Below, one piece after another: positions 33,915 to 53,085 of a stretch of 64,000 bases of DNA. The stretch is taken from the sequence record NZ_CP137560.1; one strand, 5' to 3'. A program made the translations under genes and the position numbers. Numbering within the stretch: the stretch's first letter is position 1; each line of letters starts with the position of its first letter. This DNA comes from a plasmid. The notes below the pieces were generated by a model. It was not told the origin of the DNA. It did no database searches and was given only the letters and a program-made list of their open reading frames with translations.

Positions 33915-33916
33915 AT

Positions 33917-34264
33917 TTATCCCTTTGGTAATAGGCTCATGGCACTTTGCTTGGCCGACGCAGCCACACCCTCACCGAAATTTCTGGTACTGAAGGCTGT
34001 GTCACTTTCAGGAATCATCCAAGCTGCCAGGTCTGGAACCAGGTTCAAGCACTTCAGCGAGACAATTGATGCCACAAGTAAATAGCCGCAAGTCATAAAG
34101 GCATTATGAATGTAGCCTGTCATCTCACCCTTACCAGCTGTTATCACGGTTAAGTTTTCCACCTGAACGCTGATGACAATGTCAAAAAGCAGAAGGACAT
34201 AAAAACCTACGAAGTAGAGGATATTATGGCATAAAACAAAGTCGTAATAAATCAAAAGAAACAC
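33917..34264 (-). pseudogene. traJ: traJ 3' fragment (C-terminal part of TraJ-like membrane protein), separated from its 5' part by a ~17.9-kb insertion
   Basis: The hydrophobic C-terminal region continues the reading sense of the 52118-52861 fragment. Both pieces share the junction peptide LYFVG. Confidence 0.5.
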
Positions 34265-34345
34265 ACGTTATCCAATTGATACACAGATACTTCTTTGATT
34301 TGATTTCTTTTATTTCCTTGACTGTTAAAAATCTATTTTTGGTGC

Positions 34346-34368
34346 ATTTTTGTTGCACGTTTGTTACG
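34346..34368 (+). repeat. subterminal direct repeat ATTTTTGTTGCACGTTTGTTACG (left copy)
   Basis: Exact 23-mer also found at 52062-52084; lies 86 bp upstream of the first integrase start. Confidence 0.7.
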
Positions 34369-34453
34369 CGAAATAAAATAATCTTTATAACTTTGACCTC
34401 AGAGAAACCCGAATGGGGGCATAAAATAGAAACAAATAAAAGCATATAACAGC

Positions 34454-35620
34454 ATGGGAAGACAAAAGAAAGTATCAAAACCAAAAGAGCCTGTTCGCAT
34501 TCGTCAGCGCAAGTTGAAGAATGGAAATATCAGCCTCTATCTCGACATTTATTCAGATGGTATCAGAAAATACGAGTCGCTGTCGCTCTACCTCGTTCCT
34601 GAGAAAGACCCGATTTCAAAAGACCAGAACAGACACGCTATGCAGGTGGCAAACAAGGTGAAGTCAGAAAGAATATTGGGGCTGCAGAACCGTGGCATCA
34701 AACAATGGGAGAAAATCAAGCAGGAGAATATGCCACTGCTGACTTGGCTCTGCAAATATGAGCAGTCGGACGGCAACTTTGCCAAATCCACATTGAAAGG
34801 CAGAAAGGAGATGCGCCACAAGATAGAACAGTACCTTGCCACGACTGGCGACATCAATATCTGTTTGTCAGAAATAGATGTGGATTTCTGCCGTGGCTTC
34901 GTGAAGTTTTTGAAAACGGCACATCATGGAGTGAAGAAAGACGCTACAGCTGTAATCAGTCAAGGTTGCGCCCATCATCATCAGGCGGTATTCAATGGAG
35001 CGTTGAACAAGGCGGTGCGTGAGGGTATCATAGCAAGCAATCCAATGAAACTGTTGGATGCTAAGGAGAAGCATCAGCCAGCCGAAAGCGTAAGAGAATA
35101 TCTGACCATTGACGAGTTGAAAGCCATTATGAAAGCGGACTGCGCCAACACGGAAGTAAAAAAGGCTTTTATCTTCTCTTGCTTTGCAGGATTGCGCTTG
35201 GGAGATGTACGTGCGCTCACATGGAACAAGGTGTTTCTCGCATCTGACGGAAAGACAAAATTTGTCCGCACGATCATGGAGAAGACAAACAAGCTCGTTA
35301 ATGTTCCACTATCAAAAGAGGCTCTGAACTGCCTTAATGAAAAGGAAGACCCGAACGAGCCGATATTCACTTTGCCAGGCACTCCAACGGTATGTCACGA
35401 CATCCGTAAATGGATGCAAAATGCTGATATTAAAAAGCACATCTCGTTTCACTGCTCACGGCACACCTTCGCCACGATGATGCTGACACTTGGAGTTGAC
35501 ATCTATACAACAAGCAAATTATTGGGGCATAGCAATGTCTCTACAACACAGATATACAGCAAGATAGTGGACGAGAAAAAAGTGGAGGCAGTCAACAAGG
35601 TTGATAATCTATTTGATTAG
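34454..35620 (+). CDS. tyrosine-type site-specific integrase (Bacteroides CTn/NBU-type), 388 aa
   Basis: C-terminal catalytic region HCSRHTFATMMLTLGVDIYTTSKLLGHSNVSTTQIYSKI (R...HxxR...Y). Confidence 0.85.
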   Translation: MGRQKKVSKPKEPVRIRQRKLKNGNISLYLDIYSDGIRKYESLSLYLVPEKDPISKDQNRHAMQVANKVKSERILGLQNRGIKQWEKIKQENMPLLTWLCKYEQSDGNFAKSTLKGRKEMRHKIEQYLATTGDINICLSEIDVDFCRGFVKFLKTAHHGVKKDATAVISQGCAHHHQAVFNGALNKAVREGIIASNPMKLLDAKEKHQPAESVREYLTIDELKAIMKADCANTEVKKAFIFSCFAGLRLGDVRALTWNKVFLASDGKTKFVRTIMEKTNKLVNVPLSKEALNCLNEKEDPNEPIFTLPGTPTVCHDIRKWMQNADIKKHISFHCSRHTFATMMLTLGVDIYTTSKLLGHSNVSTTQIYSKIVDEKKVEAVNKVDNLFD

Positions 35621-35644
35621 CACTAATAAAAAAGGTAACTGAAA

Positions 35645-36799
35645 ATGAGTATAGAGATAAGAACAAGAGTGTTAAAAAATGGTAGTCAGTCGCTATACCT
35701 TGACTGCTATGAGAATGGTAAAAGGGAATATGAGGCATTGCATTTGTACCTTATTCCAGAGGTGAACGAAGACGCAAAGCGAGAGAACAAGAACGCCATG
35801 AAAAAGGCGGTCGCTATAAAGGCTGAAAGACTCCTTGGTATTCGTAAGGAGGCAAAGTCTCCAGATGAAACGGCATTAAGAAAGGCATCGCCTGTTTTCT
35901 ATGAATGGCTGCTTGATTATCACAAGGGATTGATTGACAGCCAAGCGTATTCTCAGAACTACATCAAGAATGTATGGAAGCTGATAGCCATCATGCACCA
36001 ATATATGAAATACAGCCATAAAAGTGGCATACGATTGATAGACTTCAATAAAAACGTATATATGGGCTTCTTGAACTACATGAGGGACATCTATGTTTCG
36101 CCAAAGTCTCCAAGCAACCCTCAGAAGTTGGCACAGTCCACCATGCACCAAATGCAGACCACACTCAACACCATATTGAACAAGGCGGTCAGAAACGGTC
36201 TGATAAGTGCAAATCCTTTTGCTTCATTGGATATAAGGGAAAGGGTCAGCAAGGCAGAAAGTAATATCGTTGCATTGACAAAAGAAGAGGTCATGTCATT
36301 GGCTTCCGTAGAAACAGGCAGTCCTGCAACTAAACAATGTTATATGTTCTGTTGCTTTACAGGTTTAAGACATAGTGACATATCCAACTTAAGATGGAAG
36401 GATATTCGCCAAACTGATGCGGGATTGGCTATCTATCTGCCTCGTATGCAGAAAACCAAGCACCCCATTCTGATACCATTAGGCAAAAAGGCATTGGAAT
36501 GGTTGCCCGACAGGGAAGATAAAAGTGAAGATAGCCTTGTGTTTAACACACCGCAAATCTGCAACTGTGACAGAGCCCTGAAACACATGGCAAAACGAGC
36601 TGGCATTACAAAGGTTCTCGGATTTCACACAAGTCGGCACACTTTTGGAACATTGGCTATCCTCGCAGGATGTGACATCTTGACTGTGAGCAAACTATTG
36701 GGTCATAAAAGTGTTAAGACAACACAGATATATGCTTCCGTAGCCATGCAGATGAGAGCGGATGCCGTTAAGCGAGTGGAAAAAGTATTTGGAAATTAG
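35645..36799 (+). CDS. tyrosine-type site-specific integrase, second of tandem pair, 384 aa
   Basis: HTSRHTFGTLAILAGCDILTVSKLLGHKSVKTTQIYASV; paralogous to the upstream integrase. Confidence 0.85.
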   Translation: MSIEIRTRVLKNGSQSLYLDCYENGKREYEALHLYLIPEVNEDAKRENKNAMKKAVAIKAERLLGIRKEAKSPDETALRKASPVFYEWLLDYHKGLIDSQAYSQNYIKNVWKLIAIMHQYMKYSHKSGIRLIDFNKNVYMGFLNYMRDIYVSPKSPSNPQKLAQSTMHQMQTTLNTILNKAVRNGLISANPFASLDIRERVSKAESNIVALTKEEVMSLASVETGSPATKQCYMFCCFTGLRHSDISNLRWKDIRQTDAGLAIYLPRMQKTKHPILIPLGKKALEWLPDREDKSEDSLVFNTPQICNCDRALKHMAKRAGITKVLGFHTSRHTFGTLAILAGCDILTVSKLLGHKSVKTTQIYASVAMQMRADAVKRVEKVFGN

Positions 36800-36965
36800 G
36801 GAAGAAAAGAAAGGGAGTAAGGAGGATAAAATCTCTTTATTCCCTTATTTCGTATCAAATGGGTGTAAAAGTGTGAAATATCGTTATATTTTTGCCTATT
36901 AGAGCCACATAACGAATTATTATCGCAAAATTTAATGTATATTTGCAGTAAAATTCGGTGAAAAT

Positions 36966-37172
36966 ATGAAACTGAACAGAATAAAAGATACGTTGGAAGA
37001 AAAAGGCATCTCTCAGACATGGCTTGCAAAACAGCTTGGGAAGAGCTTTAGTACAGTAAACTGCTACGCCAGGAATAAATACCAGCCAGATTTGGAAACA
37101 TTGCTTGAAATATCCAAAATTCTACAAGTCGATTTGAAGGACTTGATAACAGACGAGGACGAGCGAGAGTAA
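36966..37172 (+). CDS. XRE-family HTH transcriptional regulator (68 aa)
   Basis: ISQTWLAKQLGKSFSTVNCYARNK HTH; TATATTTG -7 box at 36942-36949. Confidence 0.6.
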   Translation: MKLNRIKDTLEEKGISQTWLAKQLGKSFSTVNCYARNKYQPDLETLLEISKILQVDLKDLITDEDERE

Positions 37173-37232
37173 AAACGCCAAATGCTGGATTTTTAGAACT
37201 GGACAAAATAACTTCCGATAATAAAACGTTAT

Positions 37233-39635
37233 TTGAACATGGGCATAAGCAAAGAACTTACAGAAGAGGACATCAAGTTCCGCTATATCAACGAAGCCAT
37301 CACAAGCAAGGGATGGTCAAAGGATAGTATATTCATGGAACAGAAGGTTAAATTTACTGACGGTAAAATTAGCCTTCATGGTAATCTTGTGCATAGAGAG
37401 AAACCGAAGTTTGCCGACTATGTACTTTATGCAAATAAGGCAACACCCATTGCTATTGTAGAAGCAAAGGATGCCAATCATTCTGTTTCTCATGGATTGC
37501 AACAAGCCATGACCTATGCCCAAATGCTTGATGTGAAGTTTGCATACAGTTCAAATGGTGAAGGTTTTGCCGAACATGACTTCTTGACAGGCAGGGAACG
37601 CACTTTTGCTATGAACGAATTTCCAACAAAAGAAGAACTTGTCGAAAGATATAAAAATGAGGCTAACGATGGAAACGGACTTAACGAACAAGAGCTGGCT
37701 ATTATAGAGCAGCCTTTTTGCACTGGTCAGAATATATTTCCGCCACGATATTATCAGCGCAATGCAGTAAACCGCACAGTTGGTGCCATTGCCAAAGGAC
37801 AAAACCGTGTGCTCCTTGTCATGGCAACTGGCACAGGCAAGACATATACTGCATTTCAGATTGTATGGCGTTTGCTTAAAAGTGGTTTGAAGAAGAAAGT
37901 GTTGTATCTTGCAGACCGAAACATATTGGTTGACCAATCCATACAGCAGGATTTCAAGCCATTAGAAAAGGTGACACACAAGATTGACTACTCAAAAGAT
38001 AAGAACCACTTGGAAGAACTTGGCTCTTATCAAGTGTTCTTTGCACTCTATCAACAGTTGATTGGACAGAATGATGCCAAAAACTATAAGGAGCTGTTTC
38101 CTAATCCAGACTATTTTGACCTTGTTATCGTTGATGAGTGTCATAGAGGTAGCGCAAAGGATGATAGCAACTGGCGAAACATCTTGGAATACTTTTCTTC
38201 GGCTACTCATATAGGTATGACTGCCACACCTAAAGAAACAAAATATCAGTCAAGTATTGGCTACTTTGGTGAACCAGTCTATACTTACAGTCTTAAAAAC
38301 GGAATTGAGGACGGTTTCCTTGCTCCTTTCAAGGTTATCAACATCACAACGAACATCGGTGACGAGTGGAGACCGACAAAGGGACAAAAGGATATATACG
38401 GCAACGAGATAGAAGACCGCATTTATAATAACAGCGACTATGATTATAACATTGTCATAGAAGATCGTATAAGGGAAGTTGCGAAAGAGATAACCAACTA
38501 TCTGAAAAGTACAGATCGCATGGCTAAGACCATAGTGTTCTGTGCTGATGAAACTCATGCGGAACGTATGCGTATGGCTTTGGCTAATGCCAATGCTGAC
38601 ATGTGCAAGAAAAATCCCGACTATGTGGTTCGTATAACTGGTAGTGACGAATACGGAAAAGGCAAGTTGGATTATTTCATTTCTGTTGCCGAGAAATATC
38701 CTGTCATAGCAACTACAAGTAAGTTGCTTTCAACAGGTGTTGATTGCAAAATGACAAAACTGATTGTGCTTGACCAACAAATCGGCTCTATGACAGAGTT
38801 CAAACAAATAATTGGTCGTGGCACTCGTCTTCGTGAGAAAGAAGGAAAGACATACTTCACAGTAATGGACTTCCGCAACGTAACACGATTGTTTGCTGAC
38901 CCTGATTGGGATGGACCGATTGAGATAGACCCGAATTATCCGCCTAAACCACATATTTGTCCTGTATGTGGACAGAATCCATGCGTGTGTCCCAAACCGA
39001 CACCAGAACCCTGCCCAGTATGTGGTCAGATACCATGTATTTGCCAACAACCGCCCAAACTGCCTAAGCCAATAGTCAACTCGGACGGTTGTACAGTAAA
39101 GGTCATTAACAAGGTCGTTTCTGTCTATGACACAAATGGTAAGTTGCTTCGCACGGAAAGCATTACCGACTATACAAAGAAAAGTATCATAGACACATAC
39201 GCTACGATTGATACATTCACTTCCAAGTGGCAAGAAACCAAGAAAAAGTCAGATATTGCTGAAATGCTTAAAGACAGTGGTATTGATCTTGCAGCATTGA
39301 AGCACGACCAAGACATGGACGATGTGGATGATTTCGATTTCATCTGCCATATAGCCTACGGCAAGAAAACACTTACACGACATGAGCGTGCCGAACAAGT
39401 GAAGAAACGAGACATATTCAGCAAGTATGGTGAACAGGCACGACTTGTGCTTGAAGCCCTGTTGGATAAGTACACCAAGGAAGGTGTGTCTGAATTGGAA
39501 AGCCTTACTGTGCTTGAAAATGACCCATTCCGCAAATTGGGCTCAAAGGCAAACATCGTGAAGTTCTTTGGTGGCAAGCAAGGCTATCTTGATGCCGTAA
39601 AGGAACTGGAACAATACATATATAATATAGCATAA
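37233..39635 (+). CDS. hsdR: Type I restriction enzyme R subunit (HsdR), with Cys-rich tandem insert
   Basis: N-terminal PD-(D/E)xK region (ADYVLY...IAIVEAKD), helicase motifs (MATGTGKT, VIVDECHRG), and location upstream of hsdM. Confidence 0.85.
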   Translation: MNMGISKELTEEDIKFRYINEAITSKGWSKDSIFMEQKVKFTDGKISLHGNLVHREKPKFADYVLYANKATPIAIVEAKDANHSVSHGLQQAMTYAQMLDVKFAYSSNGEGFAEHDFLTGRERTFAMNEFPTKEELVERYKNEANDGNGLNEQELAIIEQPFCTGQNIFPPRYYQRNAVNRTVGAIAKGQNRVLLVMATGTGKTYTAFQIVWRLLKSGLKKKVLYLADRNILVDQSIQQDFKPLEKVTHKIDYSKDKNHLEELGSYQVFFALYQQLIGQNDAKNYKELFPNPDYFDLVIVDECHRGSAKDDSNWRNILEYFSSATHIGMTATPKETKYQSSIGYFGEPVYTYSLKNGIEDGFLAPFKVINITTNIGDEWRPTKGQKDIYGNEIEDRIYNNSDYDYNIVIEDRIREVAKEITNYLKSTDRMAKTIVFCADETHAERMRMALANANADMCKKNPDYVVRITGSDEYGKGKLDYFISVAEKYPVIATTSKLLSTGVDCKMTKLIVLDQQIGSMTEFKQIIGRGTRLREKEGKTYFTVMDFRNVTRLFADPDWDGPIEIDPNYPPKPHICPVCGQNPCVCPKPTPEPCPVCGQIPCICQQPPKLPKPIVNSDGCTVKVINKVVSVYDTNGKLLRTESITDYTKKSIIDTYATIDTFTSKWQETKKKSDIAEMLKDSGIDLAALKHDQDMDDVDDFDFICHIAYGKKTLTRHERAEQVKKRDIFSKYGEQARLVLEALLDKYTKEGVSELESLTVLENDPFRKLGSKANIVKFFGGKQGYLDAVKELEQYIYNIA

Positions 39636-39649
39636 AATAGAAACAAAAT

Positions 39650-41161
39650 ATGAGTTTATCAAATTTCGTAAAACGAGTACGCAATATAATGCGCAATGAT
39701 GCCGGTATCAACGGTGATGCGCAACGCATAGAACAAATGGCGTGGATGCTGTTTTTGAAAGTCTATGACGAGAAAGAGAATGACTGGGAGTTGGACGATG
39801 ATGATTACAAGTCTATTATTCCAGAAGAATGCCGTTGGCGCAACTGGGCGCATGACGATGGAAGCGGTAAAGCCTTGACTGGTGATGAGCTACTTTCGTT
39901 TGTCAACAACACATTGTTTGTGGAACTCAAAAACATAGAGATAACACCAACTACCCCTATCCGTCAGGCGATTGTAAAGACCACATTTGAGGATGCCAAC
40001 CAATATATGAAAGACGGAGTTCAACTTCGTCAAGTGCTGAATGTGATTGACGGTTTGAACCTTGGTGACTATGAGGAAAGTCATGCTTTCGGTGAGATAT
40101 ACGAGACTATTCTCAAAGAAATGCAGTCGGCTGGTTCTTCTGGTGAGTTCTACACCCCAAGAGCCTTAACCGAATTTATGGCAGAGATAGTCAATCCGCA
40201 GATTGGTGAGAAAATGGCAGACTTCGCTTGTGGTACAGGAGGTTTCATCACAAGTTGGTTGGGTGAATTGGACAAGAAGGTAAAGACTGCAGAAGACCGC
40301 AAAGAGTACAATCAGTCTGTATTTGGCATAGAAAAGAAACAGTTCCCATATATGTTATGTGTAACAAACCTGTTGCTGCATGGCATTGATACACCATTGG
40401 TATATCACGACAACTCGCTTACAAAAGATGTACTCAACTATACAGACGGAGACAAGTTTGATGTTGTGTTGATGAACCCACCATACGGTGGTAACGAGAA
40501 ATCGGATGTCAAGTCACACTTCCCTTCAGATATGCGCAGTAGCGAGACTGCCGACCTCTTCATGGTGCTTATCATGTATCGCTTGAAGAAGAATGGTCGT
40601 GCAGCGGTCATTGTCCCAGACGGTTTCCTGTTTGGAGCAGACAACACAAAGATAGCCATCAAGACCAAGCTGCTTAGAGATTTCAACTTGCATACCATTA
40701 TCCGTTTGCCAGGCAGCATCTTTGCGCCCTACACTTCCATTGCCACGAACATTCTATTCTTCGACAATACCAGTGCGGAGGGTGCTCCAGAGGGCTATTC
40801 TACAAAGGAAACGTGGTTCTATCGTTTGGATATGCCAGAGGGTTACAAGCATTTCTCCAAGACAAAGTCCATGAAGTCGGAACATTGCGACCCAATCCGT
40901 GAGTGGTGGAACGACCGTAAGGAGATTATTATTGCTGATGGTGACGAGAAATCTCGTTGCTATTCAGTTGAAGACCTTATCGCCACCGATTGCAACTTCG
41001 ACTTGTGCAAGTTCCCGAAAGAGGATGAAGAAATCTTGCCTCCTGCCGAACTGCTTGCCGACTATTTCAAGAAGCGCAAAGCTCTTGATCATGAAATTGA
41101 TAAGACATTGGCGGAGATACAGCGTATCTTGGGAATAAATGTAAATGTGGACGAATTGTAA
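39650..41161 (+). CDS. hsdM: Type I R-M N6-adenine DNA methyltransferase (HsdM)
   Basis: NPPYGG motif and AdoMet-binding region FACGTGGF. Confidence 0.9.
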   Translation: MSLSNFVKRVRNIMRNDAGINGDAQRIEQMAWMLFLKVYDEKENDWELDDDDYKSIIPEECRWRNWAHDDGSGKALTGDELLSFVNNTLFVELKNIEITPTTPIRQAIVKTTFEDANQYMKDGVQLRQVLNVIDGLNLGDYEESHAFGEIYETILKEMQSAGSSGEFYTPRALTEFMAEIVNPQIGEKMADFACGTGGFITSWLGELDKKVKTAEDRKEYNQSVFGIEKKQFPYMLCVTNLLLHGIDTPLVYHDNSLTKDVLNYTDGDKFDVVLMNPPYGGNEKSDVKSHFPSDMRSSETADLFMVLIMYRLKKNGRAAVIVPDGFLFGADNTKIAIKTKLLRDFNLHTIIRLPGSIFAPYTSIATNILFFDNTSAEGAPEGYSTKETWFYRLDMPEGYKHFSKTKSMKSEHCDPIREWWNDRKEIIIADGDEKSRCYSVEDLIATDCNFDLCKFPKEDEEILPPAELLADYFKKRKALDHEIDKTLAEIQRILGINVNVDEL

Positions 41162-41198
41162 AATGTGGAACGGTGTTCCACAAATCTAAAAGATTGGC

Positions 41199-42224
41199 AT
41201 GGAGAATAAAGGTTTGACAAACATAAATGATGCTGCCTATCAGAAGTTGATAGACAACATAACCACGCTATGGGGTGAGGCGAAGTCAAAAGCCATTGCT
41301 GCGGTCAATACGGAATTGCTTGATGCCAACTGGCAAACAGGAAAGTATATTGTTGAATTTGAACAGGGTGGTAAACAAAGAGCAGAATATGGCAAAAGGT
41401 TACTTGTAAACCTTGCAAAGGATTTGACAGCAAGAAACGGAAAAGGTTTTAACCGAACAAACCTTACCTATATGCGCAAGTTGTACTTGGCTTTCCCAAA
41501 ATGTGGGACACTGTCCCACAAATTGACATGGAGCCATTATTATGAACTGTTGAAGTGTGATAATGCGCTTGAAATGCAGTTCTATTATAAGGAATCCATC
41601 AAGGAATGTTGGAAAGTTAGGGAACTAAAAAGACAGATGAAAAGTTGTCTGTTTCAGCGACTTGCACTAAGCACAGACAAGGCTGGAGTTCTTTCTTTGG
41701 CAAACGAGGGGCATCAAGTACAAACACCGCAAGACATCATCCGTGACCCTTTCGTGCTTGAATTTGCAGGACTTCCCAAACAGAAACGCTATAAGGAGAG
41801 TGACTTAGAAAAGGCTCTTAAAGACCACATGGAGCAGTTCCTTTTGGAAATGGGACGTGGTTTTGCATTTGTGGGCAGACAATACTCCATGCAGATAGGA
41901 AGCCGACAGTTCAAGGTGGATTTGGTGTTCTACCACTGTATCTTGAAGTGCTATGTGTTGATTGATTTGAAGCGAGCAGAGATAAAGCATGGTGATATTG
42001 GGCAGATGAACCTCTACTTGAACTACTTCAAAACAGAAGTGTGTCAACCTGACGATAATCCACCCATTGGCATAGTTTTGGGAGCAAGAAAAGACGAACT
42101 TCTGATGGAGTATGCCTTGGAAGGCATAACCAATCAATTGTTTGTAGCACGTTACCAACTCTATTTGCCAAAGCGTGAAGAACTGCAAGCGCAACTTGAC
42201 AAATTATTGGACGAAGCAGAGTAA
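41199..42224 (+). CDS. DUF1016/YhcG-like PD-(D/E)xK protein embedded in R-M operon
   Basis: Putative nuclease-like motif VDLVFYHCILKCYVLIDLKRAEIKHGDIGQ. Typical placement between hsdM and hsdS. Confidence 0.6.
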   Translation: MENKGLTNINDAAYQKLIDNITTLWGEAKSKAIAAVNTELLDANWQTGKYIVEFEQGGKQRAEYGKRLLVNLAKDLTARNGKGFNRTNLTYMRKLYLAFPKCGTLSHKLTWSHYYELLKCDNALEMQFYYKESIKECWKVRELKRQMKSCLFQRLALSTDKAGVLSLANEGHQVQTPQDIIRDPFVLEFAGLPKQKRYKESDLEKALKDHMEQFLLEMGRGFAFVGRQYSMQIGSRQFKVDLVFYHCILKCYVLIDLKRAEIKHGDIGQMNLYLNYFKTEVCQPDDNPPIGIVLGARKDELLMEYALEGITNQLFVARYQLYLPKREELQAQLDKLLDEAE

Positions 42225-42264
42225 CAACAATAAAATAAGGACATTTCGATTTTATAGAATAATT

Positions 42265-42771: not shown

Positions 42772-42786
42772 CGATAGAAAATTACA

Positions 42787-44930: not shown

Positions 44931-45022
44931 GGAGCGAAATAACTGAGATTGACCTTCCTTTTGAGTTTCCAAGTTCTTGGTCTATTGCTCGATTAAATGC
45001 AGTTTGCCAACTTACAGACGGC

Positions 45023-45415: not shown

Positions 45416-46762
45416 AGTTTCAATTCTTTCGACAATGCGTTTCTGCTCATTTAAAGGAGGTAAAGGTATCAAGTGCTCAACTAATTTGACACGTGATATG
45501 TTTGGTTGGGCACCACCTTCACCTTTCTTGATAAATGTATCTCGACTTGCCATTAAGAAATAAAACAAGAACCAATTATAAACAATATAGGGAGTACAGC
45601 CACAACACGCTTGATTGGTAGTTAATTCCTTGCCTACAATAGCCAACTTTCCTATTGTAGCTCCATACATAGCAATAAGAACGTCACCTATTTTATTCAT
45701 ACGTAGAGAGCATTCTTGAAAAGCTCTCTGCGTTATTCTTTCTTCAGTATCACATATGACACCATTGTTCAACTCCCCTGTTTTAAGCCACAAAATATTG
45801 CCTCCATAATAATCTTGGTTGCTGCGCTGAGGTGTAGAACCTGCGCCCCAATCTCCAATCTGTCCCATTCTTGTCCAAGTCCAACTATTAGGGATTTCAA
45901 AGGGAATTAGCTCTGTTATATCCAAGCATTTTTTGCCTATCTGCTCATAATACTTGTTATCGTCACCACGGAAGATAACGGAATCTTTGAGGGCAGACTT
46001 CTTTAGTTTGCCCCCTTTTACGAGTTTCAGCTTTTCTTCTTTTATCTGTTTGAGCAGATCTTGGGCTGTACCTTCTTCGGCAATTTGCGGAACGAGTTTG
46101 CCTTGGATGGCTTCTTGCAGAATAGCCTTCTTCAAGCGTTGGTACATATTAGAATTTAACTTATTAAGTTCTTCTTGCTTATTGCTGTAAATACCAAGAA
46201 AATGTGTTAACTCTGTAATGTTCGCAACAATTCTTTCCTGTTCATTTATTGGTGGTAAAGGGAACAACAAAGTTTCCCAATTACCCCTATTGATTATAGG
46301 GGTTGCTGTTCCTGTAGCCTTATCCATTATTGCCAACCTAAAGTATTCTGAATGCAAAACTATATGGACAAACTCCACATTACACAAATAGGGCGTTATA
46401 GAATTTATCTGCTGATTAAAAGTAACAGGCTTGTCTGTTATGGCGCATTTACCAATAGAACCTCCAATGCAGACTTGCAAAATAGTATTCTTTGGTACAA
46501 TACGCCCATAATCAACTCCAATATCTGACAATCCCTGTGTTACACTTACAATTTTGGAATTTAGTATGTTTGCAGGACCTAAAAATGGAATATAATCACC
46601 AAAGTATTCAGGATGAGATTTGGATGGTGTTGTACCTGTTTCTGTTTTTCCAACCTCAACTAATCTACACCATTCCCACCCCTGGGGTACCTCAAACGGT
46701 ATCTCCTCATCAATACATTTCACCTTCCCCGTAGCAAGCCACTTCTCATAATAGGAACTCAT
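45398..46762 (-). CDS. inverted hsdS copy (two TRDs), 5'-truncated relative to the expressed hsdS
   Basis: Starts within the conserved SYYEKWLATGKVKCIDEEIPFEVPQGWEW region. Contains the conserved central repeat ILQEAIQGKLVPQIAEEGTAQDLLKQIKEEKLKLVKGGKLKKSALKDSVIF. Confidence 0.8.
   Translation of the reverse strand: MSSYYEKWLATGKVKCIDEEIPFEVPQGWEWCRLVEVGKTETGTTPSKSHPEYFGDYIPFLGPANILNSKIVSVTQGLSDIGVDYGRIVPKNTILQVCIGGSIGKCAITDKPVTFNQQINSITPYLCNVEFVHIVLHSEYFRLAIMDKATGTATPIINRGNWETLLFPLPPINEQERIVANITELTHFLGIYSNKQEELNKLNSNMYQRLKKAILQEAIQGKLVPQIAEEGTAQDLLKQIKEEKLKLVKGGKLKKSALKDSVIFRGDDNKYYEQIGKKCLDITELIPFEIPNSWTWTRMGQIGDWGAGSTPQRSNQDYYGGNILWLKTGELNNGVICDTEERITQRAFQECSLRMNKIGDVLIAMYGATIGKLAIVGKELTTNQACCGCTPYIVYNWFLFYFLMASRDTFIKKGEGGAQPNISRVKLVEHLIPLPPLNEQKRIVERIETLFEQL
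45971..46012 (-). repeat. 42-nt exact inverted repeat (arm 2)
   Basis: Reverse complement of 43729-43770. A second, ~80% identical inverted pair covers the N-terminal conserved regions (~42990-43075 vs ~46665-46750). Confidence 0.85.
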
Positions 46763-46822
46763 AGAACAAATCCATGCCTATTTATTAGGACAACTTAATG
46801 TTTCACTAATAAACGAATAGAA

Positions 46823-47629
46823 ATGGAATTAGACAAATTTGAAGAGTTCCTAAGCCAAGGCAATATGGCTAAGAACACGATTTCGGCATATCTGTATGCT
46901 GTGAAGGAGTTTGGCTCTCGACACAAAGAGTTGAACAAGAGAAACCTGTTGATTTACAAGACCTACTTGATTGAGACTTACAAGCCCAAGACGGTGAACC
47001 TCCGTATTCAGGCGATGAACAAGTACCTTGTATTTGTAGGCAAGACGAAACTCCGCTTGAAGTCGGTCAAGGTGCAGCAACGTTCTTATTTGGAGAATGT
47101 CATCAGCAATGCCGACTACACCTTCCTGAAGAACAAGTTGAAGAAGGAAGACAACTTGGAGTGGTACTTTGTGGTGCGTTTCTTGGCTGCGACTGGTGCC
47201 AGAGTGAGCGAACTTGTGCAAATCAAAATTGAGCATGTGCAAGTAGGCTATTATGACATCTACACCAAGGGTGGCAAGATACGGCGTATCTATATCCCCA
47301 AGACATTGCGCACGGAAACAGAAAAGTGGTTGCAGACACTCAACCGTACAAGTGGCTATCTCTTTCTCAATCGCTTTGGCGAGCGCATCACGACAAGAGG
47401 CATATCACAGCAGTTGAAGAACTATGCGGTGAAGTATGGCTTGAATGAGAAAGTGGTTTACCCTCACTCATTCCGCCATCGTTATGCCAAAAATTTCTTG
47501 GAGAAGTTCAACGACATTGCCCTGCTTGCAGACCTTATGGGGCATGAAAGCATCGAAACGACACGTATCTATCTACGAAGAAGCAGCATTGAGCAACAAG
47601 AGATAGTTGACAAAGTGATAACCTGGTAA
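46823..47629 (+). CDS. tyrosine recombinase (XerD-like) adjacent to hsdS cassettes; likely hsdS invertase
   Basis: C-terminal HSFRHRYAKNFL...LMGHESIETTRIYL catalytic signature. 268 aa. Confidence 0.8.
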   Translation: MELDKFEEFLSQGNMAKNTISAYLYAVKEFGSRHKELNKRNLLIYKTYLIETYKPKTVNLRIQAMNKYLVFVGKTKLRLKSVKVQQRSYLENVISNADYTFLKNKLKKEDNLEWYFVVRFLAATGARVSELVQIKIEHVQVGYYDIYTKGGKIRRIYIPKTLRTETEKWLQTLNRTSGYLFLNRFGERITTRGISQQLKNYAVKYGLNEKVVYPHSFRHRYAKNFLEKFNDIALLADLMGHESIETTRIYLRRSSIEQQEIVDKVITW

Positions 47630-47761
47630 TCGGAGCATATTCTATATCTTTTGATATGTTATCCATGCTATTAAACTATGCAAACGAGTATATGCTTTTT
47701 ACAACAAGTAGAATTGATTATCAGCGTTTTGCATTACCTTTGCACTCAAAAGGAAATACGC

Positions 47762-48709
47762 ATGGGACTATTCAAGAAGATAAAAGACATATTCAGCAAC
47801 GACAAAGGCAAGGAGACAAACACGCAAGAGAAAGTTTCCTTGCCTTCTTCTATAAATGTACCTCAACAGTCCATCAAGCAGCCTTTGGTAATGCCTGGTG
47901 TTACAGAGGTTATAAAGGCAAGGTCATATCTGAAAGCAAATGACACAGAACAGACTAAATGCCAATACGAGAGTGCGGTTCAAAAAGGATATTCATTGAA
48001 CCTTGAACCCTATAATTGGCTACTTCGCCATTATACAAGCAAAGAACAATGGAGCGATGCCAAGCGTGTTCTATTGCTTGTCCCTGCAAAATTCAGCCAA
48101 GATGCGCTTGTTGTCGAATTTAGGGAAGTAATAAGGCAACGAGAAGACAAACTACCCAAACAAGCCAATCTCCACAGAAACATTACCACCAAAGATACAT
48201 TGGCAAACCGATACAAAAGTTTGATTGCTCAACTGCCCGAATTTGATTTCTATACAAATGGAAACGACACATTGTTTTCAGAAGACGTTCCAGTGTGCCA
48301 TCAGATAGAAGATATAATCAGCCATATAGAGAATGAACTACGCAAGGCAAAGGTTGCCGAAAAAAGCAAGGATTACATCACTGCAACCAATATCTATGAA
48401 GAGCTGATTGCCAATGGCTATTGGAAGCCAGAGCCTTACAACCGTCTGCTTTATATCTATGATAAGGCAGGGCTTACAAATGGTATAAAGGAGTTGCTTA
48501 TTCTTGCAATAAGTTTCTTTGAAAATCAGCAAAAGAAACAGAAACAGGAATTGTTACGCCTTGCCGACAAGTACAAAAGCAGAGCCTATGCAGAGGCGAA
48601 AATAAATCAAGGAAAGACAGTGGCATATTTCGATGGTTTCTTTGAAATATACATGCCTTTCCCTGATATTGATGTCTGGAAGCGAATACTCGCTGATACT
48701 ACCGCTTAA
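47762..48709 (+). CDS. hypothetical protein with TPR-like helical repeats (~315 aa from MGLFKK)
   Basis: ORF only. Convergent overlap of a few bp with the relaxase 3' end. Confidence 0.35.
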   Translation: MGLFKKIKDIFSNDKGKETNTQEKVSLPSSINVPQQSIKQPLVMPGVTEVIKARSYLKANDTEQTKCQYESAVQKGYSLNLEPYNWLLRHYTSKEQWSDAKRVLLLVPAKFSQDALVVEFREVIRQREDKLPKQANLHRNITTKDTLANRYKSLIAQLPEFDFYTNGNDTLFSEDVPVCHQIEDIISHIENELRKAKVAEKSKDYITATNIYEELIANGYWKPEPYNRLLYIYDKAGLTNGIKELLILAISFFENQQKKQKQELLRLADKYKSRAYAEAKINQGKTVAYFDGFFEIYMPFPDIDVWKRILADTTA

Positions 48710-50135
48710 TGCCCGAACTCTTTTTGGGATAGTGTTTGCTGTGGGCGAATCTCATGCAGCGTCTGGCAAAGCTGAAAATATCCTCGTCCTTATCCCTCCA
48801 AGGCAATTCCGAATTGGAGCCACCGCCACCTCCCGACTGCGTGATGCTTGTTGCCCCATTGATGCCCTCAATGAACATCTTGACGGCTGTGCCAAGTACA
48901 TCTTTGAAACGCATATCGCACATATCTTCAATAATGGTGTTCTCTGCCATTTTCTTGGCTTCGGGTACATTGGCGCAAATTCTACTGCTCATCGTCAGCA
49001 GTTCTTGAAAACTGCCTGCAAGGATAGAGGCTTGGGCGTATGTTTGCAATGTCCGTGAAGTCTGCTCCTGCACGACACGCAAAGTTTCAGCCTCAGACTT
49101 CTGCGCCCTTGTCATGGCTCTGAACTCGGCAAGGGCTTCATCGGCTGCACTCAGTTTTTCTCGTTTGTCCGTCAGTTTGAACTCCAAGGTGGACAACTGA
49201 CTTTTGAGCCGTTCCAGTTCTTTTGACAACTCGGAATGTTCGCCATTCTGTTGTTCCAACAATTTCTCAACCTCATGAATTTTATTCTCCACCTCGGACT
49301 TCTGGTGAGTGAGGTTTTCTATCATCGTTTTCAGACCTTTAACGGCATTCTCCTTTCTGCGAATGTCAAGTTCCAGTTTGCCATTTGCGATTTCCAACTC
49401 ACGGCTTTCGGCTTGGAGTTGTCTATACCATTCGTCACGAGGGACATGCTGGGCATTGGTAGCCGAAACTGATTCGCCACGTACCAAGCCCCACTTTTTG
49501 TTGACCTCTGCCAAGTAGTCGTGGATAGCATCCAGTTTGTTTGCGTCACCACCAAAAGTATCTCGGTATTTGATACGCATCTTCTGTTTCTTTTCATCGT
49601 ACATAATTGGCGTGACAAGGCAATGGATATGCGGTGAAGACTCGTCAAGATGAACGGAAAAGTCTATGATGTTGTCTTCGCCCCATGCATCGGCAACAGC
49701 CTTGTAGATGTCCTTTGCCCACAATTCTATCTCCGCTTTGCGCTTGACATGACTGTTGTCTGCGCCTTTCGCTCGCTCCACATTTTGGTCTCCGAAAGCC
49801 ATTTCTCGCATTCTGTCGGCATCGCCCGAAAATATCATGTTGCAGGCAATGCGATATTTGGGCGTTTCAAGCCCTTTGTTAGGGTCTTCCGCACCAGTGA
49901 CTTCCAAACGGTCTTGAAACCGCTCCAAAATGGGCTTAGAAGAGCCGAGAGGTACAATCTTACCGCCCTTGACTATCTCAAAGTTGAGATGCGCACGGCT
50001 CTTGTCGTAGTTAAACTTCTTGTTGGAGGCTTTTGCTTCCCATTGGGATTCCGTCCAACGCCTCTGATGTTCGTTATCTTCACCTGCCGAAAACGACTTG
50101 ACGGCTTGTTGGTGAAACACTTGGTATTCTGGCAT
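48699..50135 (-). CDS. mobilisation relaxase (Bacteroides MobB-type)
   Basis: HLDESSPHIHCLVTPI histidine-triad motif. Coiled-coil middle. Gly-run plus RDKDEDIFSFARRC C-terminal motif shared with the relaxase at 62741-63964. Confidence 0.75.
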   Translation of the reverse strand: MPEYQVFHQQAVKSFSAGEDNEHQRRWTESQWEAKASNKKFNYDKSRAHLNFEIVKGGKIVPLGSSKPILERFQDRLEVTGAEDPNKGLETPKYRIACNMIFSGDADRMREMAFGDQNVERAKGADNSHVKRKAEIELWAKDIYKAVADAWGEDNIIDFSVHLDESSPHIHCLVTPIMYDEKKQKMRIKYRDTFGGDANKLDAIHDYLAEVNKKWGLVRGESVSATNAQHVPRDEWYRQLQAESRELEIANGKLELDIRRKENAVKGLKTMIENLTHQKSEVENKIHEVEKLLEQQNGEHSELSKELERLKSQLSTLEFKLTDKREKLSAADEALAEFRAMTRAQKSEAETLRVVQEQTSRTLQTYAQASILAGSFQELLTMSSRICANVPEAKKMAENTIIEDMCDMRFKDVLGTAVKMFIEGINGATSITQSGGGGGSNSELPWRDKDEDIFSFARRCMRFAHSKHYPKKSSGIKR

Positions 50136-50331
50136 AATGTTATTTCTAAGATGGGGTAATGAAATTTATAAAACGAGCTTGCTCTGGTGTCCTCCTAAGG
50201 GCTTGCCCGATGGAGCATAATTCGGTTGGTGATAACCATACCGAGGATTATGTTCCCCATCTACATTATGCGTACATATAGGCAAGCCTCTTCTGTTGTG
50301 TACCATCACTGCTCTAAAACGGTTTTGATGA

Positions 50332-50389
50332 AGTCTTGGCATTGCGTTCTTACTGGCAAACTGACATCATGAAGGCAAATGCCAAGACT
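50332..50389. promoter_or_regulatory. candidate oriT: 12-bp perfect inverted repeat AGTCTTGGCATT ... AATGCCAAGACT
   Basis: Arms at 50332-50343 and 50378-50389, in the 274-bp spacer between the relaxase and the upstream mobilisation accessory gene. Confidence 0.35.
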
Positions 50390-50409
50390 AAAAATGAATG
50401 AACGGTAGG

Positions 50410-51018
50410 TTACATTTCACGTTGCTCGTGGAATTGCTCCATATCTTCCGCCAACAACTGCTCTCTCACATCATCAGGGATTTCTTCCAAGGAATGGATT
50501 TGCTCCATTTCCGAAGGAGTGATTTCTGATGAATCGGAAGAAGGCAAAGGCAAAGTTGAAGAAGTCGGATCTGAAACAGACTTGTTCGGGTTCTGTTCCG
50601 ACTTCGCTTTGCCGTTGTCTCGCTTATAAAGGGCATTGGCTGTATAAACCGTTTCACCCTCATGCTTCCACGCTGCTATGCACCTCATATCCATAATGGT
50701 GGTAAGGCAATCAGTTTTTATTGTTACGATACCCAACTGTTCCAACTGTTTCAAGAAGCGGATAACTGTCTTTCGGTTGCAGTTCCATTCCTTTGAAAGT
50801 TCAAGGGCAGATACACAAGTTTGTCCTTGCATTAGTGGTTTGGATATGCCACGCTTGGTATAGGTGGTATCGGCAGTTGCCGTGTGGTGAAGCAGTCTGC
50901 GGAAACATTGTATTCTGTTGATGCCTCCCTCGTTGCTACTGAGAAAATTCAGTTGTTCGTCCGTCAATGACAAATAGTAAGTGACAGGGCGAGTTTTGTC
51001 TATCTCTTTTCTTTCCAT
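50410..51018 (-). CDS. HTH-containing mobilisation accessory protein (MobA-like?), start probably MERKEID
   Basis: HTH-like VSALELSKEWNCNRKTVIRFLKQLEQLGIV; acidic Ser/Pro-rich tail. Located upstream of the relaxase. Confidence 0.4.
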   Translation of the reverse strand: MERKEIDKTRPVTYYLSLTDEQLNFLSSNEGGINRIQCFRRLLHHTATADTTYTKRGISKPLMQGQTCVSALELSKEWNCNRKTVIRFLKQLEQLGIVTIKTDCLTTIMDMRCIAAWKHEGETVYTANALYKRDNGKAKSEQNPNKSVSDPTSSTLPLPSSDSSEITPSEMEQIHSLEEIPDDVREQLLAEDMEQFHEQREM

Positions 51019-51062
51019 GTCCGAATGGTTTATAAATGGTGAATGACTGAAAGGACAACAAA

Positions 51063-51371
51063 TCATCGGTGAAGACCATGCTGTTGCCGTGGCATATCCT
51101 CACTGACAATCTTCATGAGTTTTCTATCCAAGCGTTGAAGTTCATCTTTGTTAAGACTGTTTATTGCCTCTATGCTTACTCGTAATGCAACGGCACGTCT
51201 TCCATACAAAATGGCTTGTTCGTCATTGTCTATGGCATGGTTTGCACCAGTTGCTTCAATGTAATCATTGACGGCATCCCTCATGGATAGTTCACGAAGT
51301 CCTGTCTTAGCCCAGAGGACAGACAGTTTGACTGCCTGTTCCTTCTTGGCTTCAAATTCTGTTGTCCTCAT
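51063..51371 (-). CDS. hypothetical protein (~102 aa from MRTTEFE)
   Basis: ORF trimmed to its internal Met to avoid overlap with the excisionase-like gene. Confidence 0.3.
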   Translation of the reverse strand: MRTTEFEAKKEQAVKLSVLWAKTGLRELSMRDAVNDYIEATGANHAIDNDEQAILYGRRAVALRVSIEAINSLNKDELQRLDRKLMKIVSEDMPRQQHGLHR

Positions 51372-51373
51372 GA

Positions 51374-51784
51374 CTACTTGACACTTAAATTTTTCAAGAT
51401 ACGGTTGGCTTCTTCTGAAACCTGCGCCTTTGACGCAATCGCATTTCTGCGAATCCATGTCAAGAGTTCCGCTTTCTCGAAATACACCATCTTGCCATTC
51501 GGCTTGTAATAAGGAATGGTCTGCTCATGGGTCATCTTGTAGAGCGAACTTTTTGTCACTCCCATAAATCGGGCAGCTTCTTCCAAAGTCAGCACTTCCT
51601 TACCTGCTGACAGGGTATTTTCAAGCACTTCTACTCGCTTGGCGAGTTTTAGGTTCTCCAGCATGAGCGCTTGAACATCTGGAGTTACACTTTGATTGGT
51701 TCGTGATTCCATAATCTGTTGATGTTTTAATTTGACTATTTCATCATGACCATTGTTTGTGATTGCAAGTTGAAAGTGGTGCAA
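51374..51784 (-). CDS. excisionase/MerR-like HTH_17 DNA-binding protein
   Basis: LTLEEAARFMGVTKSSLYKMTHEQTIPYYKPNGKMVYFEKAELLTWI. Confidence 0.6.
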   Translation of the reverse strand: MHHFQLAITNNGHDEIVKLKHQQIMESRTNQSVTPDVQALMLENLKLAKRVEVLENTLSAGKEVLTLEEAARFMGVTKSSLYKMTHEQTIPYYKPNGKMVYFEKAELLTWIRRNAIASKAQVSEEANRILKNLSVK

Positions 51785-52061
51785 AGGTATGTAAGATATT
51801 TCTCATTCTGTTAGAAATGCTTGGTCAATGACGAAATCTTAAGCTATATTATAATAATGAAGTTATTTCATACTCTAAATCATACTTGGATGAAATAAAG
51901 TGAGGACAAAATCAAACTTAGAAACGATAGTAAGAATACAAGAGAAACGCTGTTTTTGGAACTTGGTTGTCAAATCCTCAAAACAGCCATAAAATGCAGA
52001 AATGGTGCTTGGGCTGTAATTTTATAGTTGCAAATACGCAATTATCTCTTTTTATTTGGAA

Positions 52062-52084
52062 ATTTTTGTTGCACGTTTGTTACG
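52062..52084 (+). repeat. subterminal direct repeat ATTTTTGTTGCACGTTTGTTACG (right copy)
   Basis: Exact match to 34346-34368; lies ~60 bp inside the right junction. Confidence 0.7.
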
Positions 52085-52117
52085 TGGAGGTGTTTTGTGA
52101 AATAGCAACACTGATAA

Positions 52118-52861
52118 TCAGCGAGTTACATAGCGAAATAATCCCACGAAGTAAAGCATTGCACCATAGAAATGAACCGTCAAATACCTAGTAAGCCACT
52201 TAGCCCAGGCTCCCTCCCATTTTGGAAGGACAGAAAAAGCCCATTGGATAGGGCCAAAGATAGTGAGCATACCCAACAATATCTGCTGACAGAAGATGGT
52301 ACTCCACCATCCTACACGATAAATGACGAGAGCAAAGAACATCACTATCTTATCCAGTCCTATGATAAGACCTGCAAAAACGGAACGGTCAGCGGCCTCC
52401 TGCACCATGGCTTCTCCTTCTTGCTTACTCTCGATGTCTTCCACTTGCATGGAGGCATCTTGAACGATTTCACTTAGAATCAATTCCTTGGCAACCTCTT
52501 GCTTGGGTGCTATTTTTCGATAGAGTGAGTCACGTTTCTGTACCAGCGGCATCAACTCATTATATTTCTCACTCACCTGTATGGCCTCCGCCTCATATAG
52601 GTCATGTGTATAGGAACCTATGCAGTTAGGTATAAATGCGAGGGCATCCAAGATGCTTCCATTATTGTTGGTAGAAGAAGGATACCAGAAGCACATAACC
52701 AGTGCGATACCCATCACTTTCATGATTTTGATCACGTCAATGGGTTCCCCTTTGACAAGCATCTTGTAACACATGCCACCAGCCACAAGAATGGAGAAAA
52801 GTGCTCCAAGAGCCATGCACATCTGCAAAATCCACCAATTATCCCAAGCGGGTCTAACCAT
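52118..52861 (-). pseudogene. traJ: traJ 5' fragment (N-terminal ~250 aa of TraJ-like membrane protein), truncated by insertion
   Basis: Multi-TM protein. Motifs EPIDVIKIMKVMGIALVMCFWYP and GPIQWAFSVLPKW...WLTRYLTVHFYG resemble the Bacteroidetes TraJ family as I recall it. Ends LYFVG + LFRYVTR-stop, the tail being contributed by the inserted element. Confidence 0.5.
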
Positions 52862-53085
52862 CGGAAATGAAAGGATAGTAAAGTGATGTAATATCGCTGA
52901 TTTACAGTCTATTAGGAATGAAAGCCGGTTTTGGATTGGTTCGTTATTCTTTCCTAAATTAGCGGATTGTTTACCCACTTTTGTCTCGTTTTTGTCCCTC
53001 GTTGTATTATCTTTGTATCGCAAGTTAAATGCTTGATAATCAGTGATAAAAGAATATATTAACATCAGAAAAGAAAGGAAATAAA

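Follow-up and report, generated by a model that had tools for sequence, protein, structure and literature searches.

Tandem-integrase elements inserted in the traJ-like gene of a Bacteroidales conjugative transposon

In gut Bacteroidales and Prevotellaceae, conjugative transposons account for much of the gene flow. Here we analyze a stretch of plasmid DNA (64,000 nucleotides of sequence record NZ_CP137560.1, hereafter the window) in which the traJ-like gene of a Prevotellaceae/Bacteroidales conjugative transposon is interrupted by an element with two tandem tyrosine integrases, a relaxase and a Type I restriction-modification (R-M) system (element 1), and by a second, related element (element 2). 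Among mobilizable elements, NBU1 and NBU2 have a single integrase, share a short common core with their target and integrate without disrupting a gene. Their targets are tRNA-Leu or tRNA-Ser genes, entered at the 3' end, and their relaxases are of the MobP type (PMC5704250). MTnPi1, MTnPi2 and MTnPi3 of Prevotella intermedia are 'Tyr duo' mobilizable transposons (Naito et al. 2016, PMC4755523; Guedon et al. 2017, PMC5704250), whose excision as circles was shown by polymerase chain reaction (PCR) and for which the authors suggested that both integrases are needed (PMC4755523). The Prevotella conjugative transposons CTnPi2 and CTnPi3 have multiple internal integrase genes, with a Type I R-M system in CTnPi3, and the authors guessed that these were MTn-like insertions (PMC4755523). 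In Firmicutes, IME_Sco1050_traG_site1/site2, Tn6104 and IMESp2907 integrate in conserved genes of Tn5252-superfamily integrative and conjugative elements (ICEs) (PMC5704250).

Both elements in the window have the 'Tyr duo' layout of two tandem, distantly related tyrosine recombinase genes, and we conclude that element 1 is very probably an integrated, site-specific integrative mobilizable element (IME) of the 'two tandem tyrosine integrases' type, in traJ. Feature coordinates are collected in Table 1.

Insertion points of element 1 and the empty site in traJ

An earlier note on the window had read the two minus-strand open reading frames (ORFs) flanking element 1 as parts of one TraJ-like protein, and intact homologues bear this out. 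One TraJ-position membrane protein of 389 residues yields both pieces (52146-52838 and 33917-34216), and an intact homologue from the protein collection (P0004, 388 residues) is 91% identical to the joined fragments. In a tblastn search, residues 63-296 of P0004 matched 52837-52136 and residues 289-388 matched 34222-33923, and beyond these two blocks the protein matched nothing in the window. In an alignment of nine proteins, the joined fragments were colinear with the intact proteins across the junction, and HFYGAMLYFVGFYVLLLFDIV was nearly invariant, occurring once in each intact protein. The peptide LYFVG, which the note had pointed out at the ends of both fragments, is seen there because the underlying DNA is duplicated.

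The empty site that this reading predicts was found in the same transposon. The exact TraM of the window (414 residues) also occurs on contigs with an intact traJ of 389 codons, and its lookup yielded seven contigs (L035-L041 in our numbering) that have this transposon background, neither element and an uninterrupted traJ with a single TACTTCGT. Window positions 30891-34222 align with 12032-8701 of L035 at 99.9% identity and positions 52146-52838 with 8714-8022 at 100% identity, and both matches overlap at an 8-bp core. Read base by base, the empty site of L035 is GCAATGCTT-TACTTCGT-AGGTTTTTATG, while the window reads GCAATGCTT-TACTTCGT-GGGATTATTTCGC at the excisionase/relaxase end and CCATAATATCCTC-TACTTCGT-AGGTTTTTATG at the integrase end. 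The empty-site comparison thus sets the limits of the insert, which at least 35 other junctions back, and the crossover lies inside the 8-bp core.

The core reads ACGAAGTA on the plus strand and TACTTCGT on the minus (coding) strand; the earlier note had its two positions right, but TACTTCGT is not on the forward strand as it had said. Four copies of the 8-mer are present in the window versus 1.2 expected, which alone is not improbable, and the core is decisive because it stands at both junctions yet is single in the empty site. The two further copies of TACTTCGT/ACGAAGTA, at 1350-1357 and 61629-61636, are consistent with chance; the copy at 61629 is preceded by CC, as at the junctions, and lies inside the cargo of element 2. 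In traJ, the core covers codons Tyr291-Phe292-Val293, in a predicted transmembrane helix, and more distant intact traJ genes on six contigs read uninterrupted through this site (...ATGCTnTAyTTyGTnGGnTTyTAyGT...). Beyond the core, the ends of element 1 partly mimic the target, the element attachment site (attP) being ATCCTC-TACTTCGT-GGGATTATT versus ATGCTT-TACTTCGT-AGGTTTTTA for the target site (attB), which corresponds to the imperfect duplication of ~18 bp noted earlier. The perfect 23-bp repeats noted earlier are likewise exact; they are in direct orientation, set in from the cores by 130 bp on the left and 62 bp on the right, are expected 0 times by chance in the window, and are kept with 0-1 mismatch in 25/25 other copies of element 1.

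The two insertions vary within this one transposon lineage. In addition to L035-L041, which have neither element, the same background carries element 1 in L042 (where the element 2 site is outside the contig), element 2 only in L043 and L044, and both elements in the window, a presence/absence polymorphism that shows recent gain or loss.

Alternatively, the split in traJ could stem from a chimeric assembly or from homologous recombination of one transposon copy with another, as metagenome-type assemblies can misjoin repeats and related transposons may share one sample. We consider this barely credible, since both traJ pieces match one contiguous transposon and meet at a core that is shared with the element ends, and since identical junction sequences are found on over 80 independent contigs, drawn from many samples, as well as in the genome of an isolate. 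We also rejected a reading in which the two pieces come from different transposons, with flank identities to L002-L005 of 93% vs 73%. Compared piecewise, both pieces are ~77-80% identical to L002-L005, the 93% having come from element 2, and both match L035 at 99.9-100%.

The TraJ label of the interrupted gene is based on gene order, on hydropathy and on the curated TraJ model TIGR03782, which its product matches weakly but colinearly. The intact 389-residue protein matches model positions 31-307 colinearly with 25.3 bits (E 7e-6), not reaching the cut-off of 289.95, and the window fragment scores 25.7 bits. The gene lies between a DUF5045 (traI-position) gene and traK in L001, L006 and L035, and its product has at least five hydrophobic segments (Kyte-Doolittle), as a multi-pass membrane protein, and weakly matches the CD3337/EF1877 mobilome membrane family. 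Neither traJ fragment matched any Pfam family, and a PDB sequence search with the intact protein returned nothing meaningful. Judged from these sequence comparisons, the protein is best named TraJ-position or TraJ-like. Of the neighboring genes that the earlier note had called traK-, traL-, traM- and traN-like, traK, traM and traN score above their NCBIfam cut-offs, while the traL-position gene had no family match in Pfam or NCBIfam and is placed between traK and traM in all related loci. On L035-L041 (n=7), the full operon runs from DUF4134 and DUF4133 small genes through traG, an 893-residue gene, a 271-residue gene, the DUF5045 gene, traJ, traK, the 106-residue gene, traM and traN to further genes.

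Specificity of element 1 for traJ and its spread

All contigs retrieved through an identical integrase A (10/10) have the traJ 3' fragment next to the element, followed by traK, traM and traN, and 8/10 of the contigs fetched by the 218-residue protein of element 1 have a 286-287-residue traJ 5' fragment after upstream tra genes and no second element. On the element side, the sequence at each junction is conserved as far as the core, and on the target side it differs by many synonymous changes. The same traJ junction was present in 4/4 genome loci, namely Leyella stercorea DSM 18206 (NZ_JH379330.1), metagenome-assembled genomes (MAGs) of a Prevotella and of Bacteroides xylanisolvens, and a contig binned as Lachnospiraceae. 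This last contig (L048, CAVKNU010000329.1, 'Lachnospiraceae bacterium' bin) combines a Bacteroidales-type traJ junction with a 95%-identical integrase and is probably mis-binned.

Specificity was counted from one pattern search for the right end AAATAATCCCACGAAGTA in metagenomes, which returned 80 loci; 7/80 were chance matches (element-side identity at most 0.36), and the 73 real ends were kept. Of these, 67 share one nucleotide position in traJ and 5 lie at other sites; 1 contig was too short to classify. The 67 traJ flanks represent 35 distinct 33-nt sequences, with 66 flanks encoding HFYGAMLYF and one HFYGACLYF. traJ is the preferred target of element 1, not an obligatory one. Off-target copies are carried by L017, L026, L060, L066, L075, L082 and L085, and the neighbor of the copy in L017 is a gene for a 2287-residue protein.

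Such off-target copies would fit an element of low insertion specificity, with traJ being no more than a place that tolerates insertions or in which they are selected. This explanation is exceedingly improbable, given that 67/72 copies are at the same nucleotide across 35 flank variants and that, around the core, the element ends resemble the target. In addition, NA[A/G]CAT directly follows the core, as in traJ, in 3/6 readable off-target flanks (L066, L075 and L082), pointing to sequence recognition.

The integrase module is 97-99.7% identical to that of the window on contigs where the adjacent tra genes are only ~67-72% identical. Since the module is far more alike than the genes next to it, the near-identical element has moved among diverged transposons. 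These data bear on whether the integrase/R-M segment could be a fixed, vertically inherited and immobile internal module of the transposon family, as might be supposed because no attP junction was recovered (see below) and because Naito et al. found no att sequences by the internal integrases and Type I R-M system of CTnPi3 (PMC4755523). A fixed module is very unlikely, however, in view of the empty sites in a 99.9-100% identical transposon, the identity of the element across diverged transposons, the copies outside traJ, and the sharp ends with their duplicated core and conserved subterminal repeats.

Several observations weigh against an IME with traJ as its site. The circular junction AATAATCCCACGAAGTAGAGGAT (the 23-nt attP) had 0 exact matches in the metagenome collection, and a 3-mismatch attP search of 147 fetched loci found no circular junction, the matches being integrase-end junctions whose traJ side resembles the other end of the element. 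By the curated model the TraJ identity is weak (~25 bits vs a cut-off of 290), 5/72 classified copies of element 1 are outside traJ, and only about half of the sampled copies of element 2 are in traJ, the rest being at a chromosomal TGGTGG site beside efflux genes.

Cargo of element 1, element 2 and the break in traN

Domain searches confirmed the contents that had been listed for element 1: two integrases, an excisionase-like HTH_17 gene, a Mob_Pre relaxase and a Type I R-M system, the last complete in that HsdR, HsdM and HsdS were all found. In an alignment, the R...HxxR...Y catalytic motif residues were kept in integrases A and B. The 68-residue gene at the position of the small helix-turn-helix (HTH) gene carries PF01381/PF13443 in L008-L013, and the region of the 218-residue protein and the small ORF is conserved in 23 contigs. 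No type IV secretion system (T4SS) or mating-pore domain was found in the ORFs scanned across 34217-52145. Since a relaxase is present and mating-pore genes are absent, element 1 is by its composition mobilizable and not conjugative. No primase domain was found among these ORFs, and the 343-, 218- and 131-residue proteins had no informative matches (for the first, none in Pfam, NCBIfam or PADLOC). In L007 (~8.7-13.2 kb), L014 and L016, an identical integrase A accompanies a different Type I R-M system (HsdR 1061 residues, HsdM 556 residues), and therefore the same backbone swaps its defense cargo.

The three hsdS genes are separated by inverted repeats of 192, 88, 27 and 24 nt, the long ones being 82-83% identical and those of 24-27 nt near-exact. 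The adjacent 268-residue recombinase is a candidate hsdS invertase. It occurs in identical form on nine contigs, 6/9 of which end inside or just beside the neighboring hsdS, as expected if arrangements are mixed within samples. The layout is typical of a phase-variable specificity locus. When hsdS inversion was sought by comparing the window with L141, replaced target-recognition segments were seen and no inversion. The earlier note had missed this three-copy hsdS array with its own recombinase, as well as the Mu-like prophage in traN described below.

Table 1. Features of the window (L035 is a contig with the empty site; bits are model scores)
Feature	Position	Strand	Basis or remark
Element 1, probable tandem-integrase integrative mobilizable element, 17,929 bp	34217-52145		L035 empty site and other junctions
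Element 1 core, integrase-end junction	34209-34216	-	TACTTCGT on coding strand
Element 1 core, excisionase/relaxase-end junction	52146-52153	-	
23-bp subterminal direct repeat, left	34346-34368	+	exact; extra ATTTTTGGTGC unit before it at 34335-34345
23-bp subterminal direct repeat, right	52062-52084	+	exact
traJ 3' piece, codons 291-389 and stop, one core copy	33917-34216	-	tblastn; L035 match
traJ middle piece, codons 63-293	52146-52838	-	100% identity to L035 8022-8714; tblastn
traK	33273-33914	-	TIGR03781 262.7 bits, cut-off 152
traL-position gene, 106 residues	32934-33254	-	between traK and traM in all related loci
traM	31678-32922	-	TIGR03779 189 bits, cut-off 172; PF12508
traN, 3'-truncated	30891-31600	-	TIGR03780 185 bits, cut-off 164
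Integrase A, tyrosine recombinase with Arm-DNA-bind_5 N-terminus	34454-35620	+	PF00589, PF17293, PF13102
Integrase B, Arm-DNA-bind_5 domain	35645-36799	+	PF00589; 33% identity to A
Small XRE-type HTH gene, 68 residues	36966-37172	+	ORF upstream of hsdR
hsdR	37233-39635	+	Pfam; PADLOC REase_I 934 bits
hsdM	39650-41161	+	Pfam; PADLOC MTase_I 551 bits
DUF1016/YhcG PD-(D/E)xK nuclease (PADLOC candidate PDC-S02) and PDC-M59C-type small gene	41199-42771	+	between hsdM and hsdS
hsdS, full-length	42787-44343	+	PF01420
hsdS, half	44340-44930	+	PF01420
hsdS, inverted, full-length	45398-46762	-	PF01420
Third, small tyrosine recombinase, 268 residues	46823-47629	+	PF00589; next to inverted hsdS
Conserved gene, 343 residues	47678-48709	+	kept in other element 1 copies
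Relaxase, Mob_Pre (MobV) type	48699-50135	-	PF01076
HTH protein, 218 residues	50410-51066	-	weak HTH matches
Small ORF, 131 residues	51063-51458	-	
HTH_17 excisionase-like gene, 112 residues in other copies (L018-L026)	51374-51712	-	PF12728
Element 2, second tandem-integrase mobilizable element	52839-64000		right end off window
Element 2 core TTGGTGG (coding strand), Trp63-Trp64 of TraJ	52832-52838	-	
TTTTGTCNCG repeats of element 2	52976-53009		recur at its other end
Element 2 integrase A	53086-54267		
Element 2 integrase B	54264-55424		
Element 2 serine resolvase	55574-56227		
Element 2 ORF6N gene	56300-57325		PADLOC candidate PDC-S05
Element 2 esterase/CBM20	57372-58751		
Element 2 482-residue gene	58857-60305		
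Element 2 C11-peptidase-like gene	60419-61585		
Element 2 206-residue ORF	62157-62777	-	
Element 2 PF03432-type relaxase	62741-63964	-	partial MbpB and TraI/MobA(P) similarity
Mu-like transposable prophage, partial	1-30890		off left window end; abuts traN break at 30890/30891
Prophage MuB-like AAA protein	23763-24641		
Prophage transposase, MuA-like	24658-26742		phrog_310
Prophage S24/cI-like repressor	28954-29691		

The tra operon has been hit a second time by a related tandem-integrase element, as the earlier note had proposed. Element 2 belongs to the same family as element 1. Its integrases A and B are 44% and 35% identical to their element 1 counterparts, its layout is the same, and relative to traJ it is oriented as element 1 is, at a position further 5'. 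It differs in its cargo and in its relaxase, which is of the PF03432 type and not of the Mob_Pre type. The motif that the note had seen at 52976-53009 before the second integrase pair is real, its TTTTGTCNCG units recurring at the other end of element 2. The placement of this element against the traJ start codon proved incorrect. The match to intact traJ ends at 52838, the ATG at 52861 and the codons that follow (MVRPAWDN) are element 2 sequence, and traJ residues 1-62 are absent from the window in a tblastn search with the intact homologue. Because these residues are missing and the ATG is in element 2 DNA, element 2 interrupts codons 63-64, with insertion at Trp63-Trp64, the start of the first TraJ hydrophobic segment. 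Thus the ORF at 52118-52861, read as the N-terminal ~250 residues of the protein, is a piece of traJ but comprises codons 63-293, and traJ is in three pieces, the first of which is beyond the window edge.

The inserted DNA of element 2 is 97-98% identical to that at the same junction in L002-L005, although traJ there is only ~77% identical. Complete copies in L027-L034 run in the order HTH_17, 115-residue, 216-residue, NikA-like, PF03432 relaxase, 174-residue, C11 peptidase, 482-residue, esterase, ORF6N, serine resolvase, integrase B and integrase A genes, and the window shows this order reversed, as far as the relaxase. The junctions read ...GGnCCnTTyTGGTGG/TTACTGGTGGTTGCCG... on the traJ 5' side and ...GGGATAATTGGTGG/ATTTTGCAGATG... 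on the 3' side (slashes mark the junctions). The crossover is at either TGGTGG copy, the first in the window, L027, L029 and L030, and the second in L002-L005 and L034. The attachment site, GATAATTGGTGG-TTAC-TGGTGGTTGCCG, was read directly in L028, where two related elements are in tandem; the predicted attP is GATAATTGGTGGTTACTGGTGGTTGCCG and the predicted attB CCGTTTTGGTGGATTTTGCAG. The integrase end of element 2 in L028 (~21116-21160) is fused to the excisionase end of the second, related element, a tandem accretion. The TACTTCGT copy at 61629-61636 was considered as the right end of element 2 and rejected, as the element continues past the relaxase to the HTH_17 gene in L027-L034, its core is TGGTGG, and the rate of the 8-mer fits chance.

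Element 2 also alters the TraJ products that are called at its junctions. The terminal part of element 2 contains in-frame ATGs at 52861 and 53065 whose reading frame continues into traJ codon 63, and because element 2 supplies these ATGs, fusion proteins of 403-411 residues are called in loci with element 2 only. The same truncated TraJ of 322 residues that forms protein cluster P0006 (145 member sequences) is called at the element 2 junction of L002-L005. In L006 (~9987), which lacks element 2, traJ has an 82-nt frameshifting deletion whose right edge is the TGGTGG core, and this deletion may be the scar of an aberrant excision.

At the other side of the tra genes, the traN match to the intact transposon stops at 30891, with the last 139 nt of the gene missing (intact traN is 11323-12171 in L035, and the alignment ends at L035 12032), and no traN 3' remainder was found within 1-30890. 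This region holds terminase, portal, Mu-F-like, major head, tape-measure, DUF3164 and Phage_tail_S (virion morphogenesis family) genes in addition to the prophage genes in Table 1, and two 22-nt subterminal direct repeats (30776-30797 and 30867-30888) lie beside its terminus. A lookup of the prophage repressor to define the phage end retrieved only short contigs. The left neighbor is most simply explained by insertion of a Mu-like prophage into traN, a third mobile-element hit on the same tra operon. The description of the host as a conjugative-transposon remnant is unsupported, because each of the three visible discontinuities is a junction with a mobile element and the same transposon occurs complete on other contigs.

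Proposed mechanism and comparison with known systems

We propose that the attachment site of element 1 recombined with the 8-bp TACTTCGT inside traJ and that integrases A and B would jointly catalyze integration and excision, with the 23-bp repeats as putative arm-type sites for the Arm-DNA-bind_5 domains and the HTH_17 protein as the likely directionality factor. Excision as a circle and mobilization by a helper, which we infer from the presence/absence polymorphism and the spread among diverged transposons, would give a circle with the predicted junction ...GAAATAATCCC-ACGAAGTA-GAGGATATTATGG..., on which the MobV relaxase would nick the origin of transfer (oriT) and to which the T4SS of the co-resident transposon would supply the pore. 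Since the target gene is only on conjugative transposons, a helper element would be in the same cell. While integrated, element 1 would abolish TraJ, and hence transposon transfer, by leaving it without its last two hydrophobic segments, and with element 2 also present TraJ would lack its conserved N-terminal 62 residues and the operon its promoter. Excision would restore traJ to its original sequence, the recombination being conservative. Defense or stabilization is the probable role of the R-M cargo and its several hsdS genes.

This restorability could point to a regulated switch, as in the skin element and 'active lysogeny' prophages, in which excision would be tied to transposon induction, traJ would be rebuilt only once transfer is triggered, and element and transposon would leave together. 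The target, an internal codon of a conjugation gene that conservative recombination can restore exactly, fits such a switch, as does the fact that two family members occupy different sites of one gene and point the same way; the same idea was put forward for Firmicutes elements in ICE genes (PMC5704250). In contrast, a traJ with two elements and a traN broken at a prophage end look more like accumulated damage, and some copies are outside traJ, so that we regard a switch of this kind as unlikely. It is conceivable, if doubtful, that both elements are dedicated parasites of one Bacteroidales transposon family that gate its mating pore by integration and excision and bring R-M cargo with them. 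If true, hitch-hikers that attach at two conserved stretches of traJ, both coding for transmembrane segments, would control when their helper transfers, and every cell holding the transposon would also receive a Type I R-M system with multiple hsdS genes.

A widespread element landing in a pore gene would cap or gate gene flow among Bacteroidales. The reach of element 1 extends to 73 metagenome contigs from one pattern search and to Leyella, Prevotella and Bacteroides genomes, and the same elements carry defense systems between genera. They may also account for the 'internal integrases' recorded in Prevotella transposons in 2015, for which no attachment site had been identified. For annotation, gene callers report truncated or fused TraJ proteins at the junctions, such as the 322-residue cluster P0006, and transposons may be labeled 'degraded' when they are merely interrupted. 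Given the exact attB and attP sequences, PCR can directly test the hypotheses of excision and transfer.

Recombinase-linked, phase-variable Type I R-M systems with multiple hsdS genes are known from the Streptococcus pneumoniae ivr locus, Mycoplasma pulmonis hsd and Bacteroides fragilis. Like these, element 1 has several opposed hsdS genes, inverted repeats and an adjacent small tyrosine recombinase, although its long repeats are only 82-83% identical and the near-exact ones 24-27 nt.

In its integration, element 1 loosely resembles NBU1 and NBU2, Bacteroidales mobilizable elements of the tyrosine-integrase kind, which conjugative transposons mobilize (PMC5704250), and differs in having two integrases, an 8-bp core and an internal traJ codon as its target. 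The integration of NBU/CTn type proposed in the earlier note therefore holds for site-specific insertion by tyrosine integrases with a short core, but not for the number of integrases or for the target, which is internal coding sequence and not a tRNA 3' end.

By gene layout, element 1 is like MTnPi1-3, with a Prevotellaceae host, two tandem, distantly related tyrosine integrases at one end, a relaxase, variable cargo and integration by a short att sequence. The att sequences of MTnPi1-3 are 11-bp degenerate motifs (TTAC N5 AA and similar), which differ from the cores of elements 1 and 2 (TACTTCGT and TTGGTGG), and MTnPi1-3 carry a primase-family gene; no primase domain was detected in the ORFs scanned in element 1. 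Compared by description, the internal integrases of CTnPi2 and CTnPi3 may reflect the same process. No att site, target gene or specificity was identified for them; here the two traJ sites, the cores and the empty sites are defined.

The Firmicutes IMEs and IME_oriT are like elements 1 and 2 in being mobilizable and in targeting a gene or the oriT of a conjugative element. In Firmicutes traG, up to two elements are found at two sites, as in traJ, with the same 'hitch-hiker or pirate' logic. The Firmicutes IMEs use serine recombinases (IME_oriT has one tyrosine integrase) and target genes for a VirD4 coupling protein, a Maff2-like or an SNF2-like protein, in contrast with two tyrosine integrases and a membrane-protein gene of a Bacteroidota-type T4SS here. 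No description of a traJ-targeting element in Bacteroidota was found in the literature searched, the coverage of which was incomplete, so that this is absence of evidence only. Taken together, tandem-integrase mobilizable transposons and the targeting of conjugation genes in Firmicutes are known, and what appears new here is a traJ-specific family in Bacteroidales.

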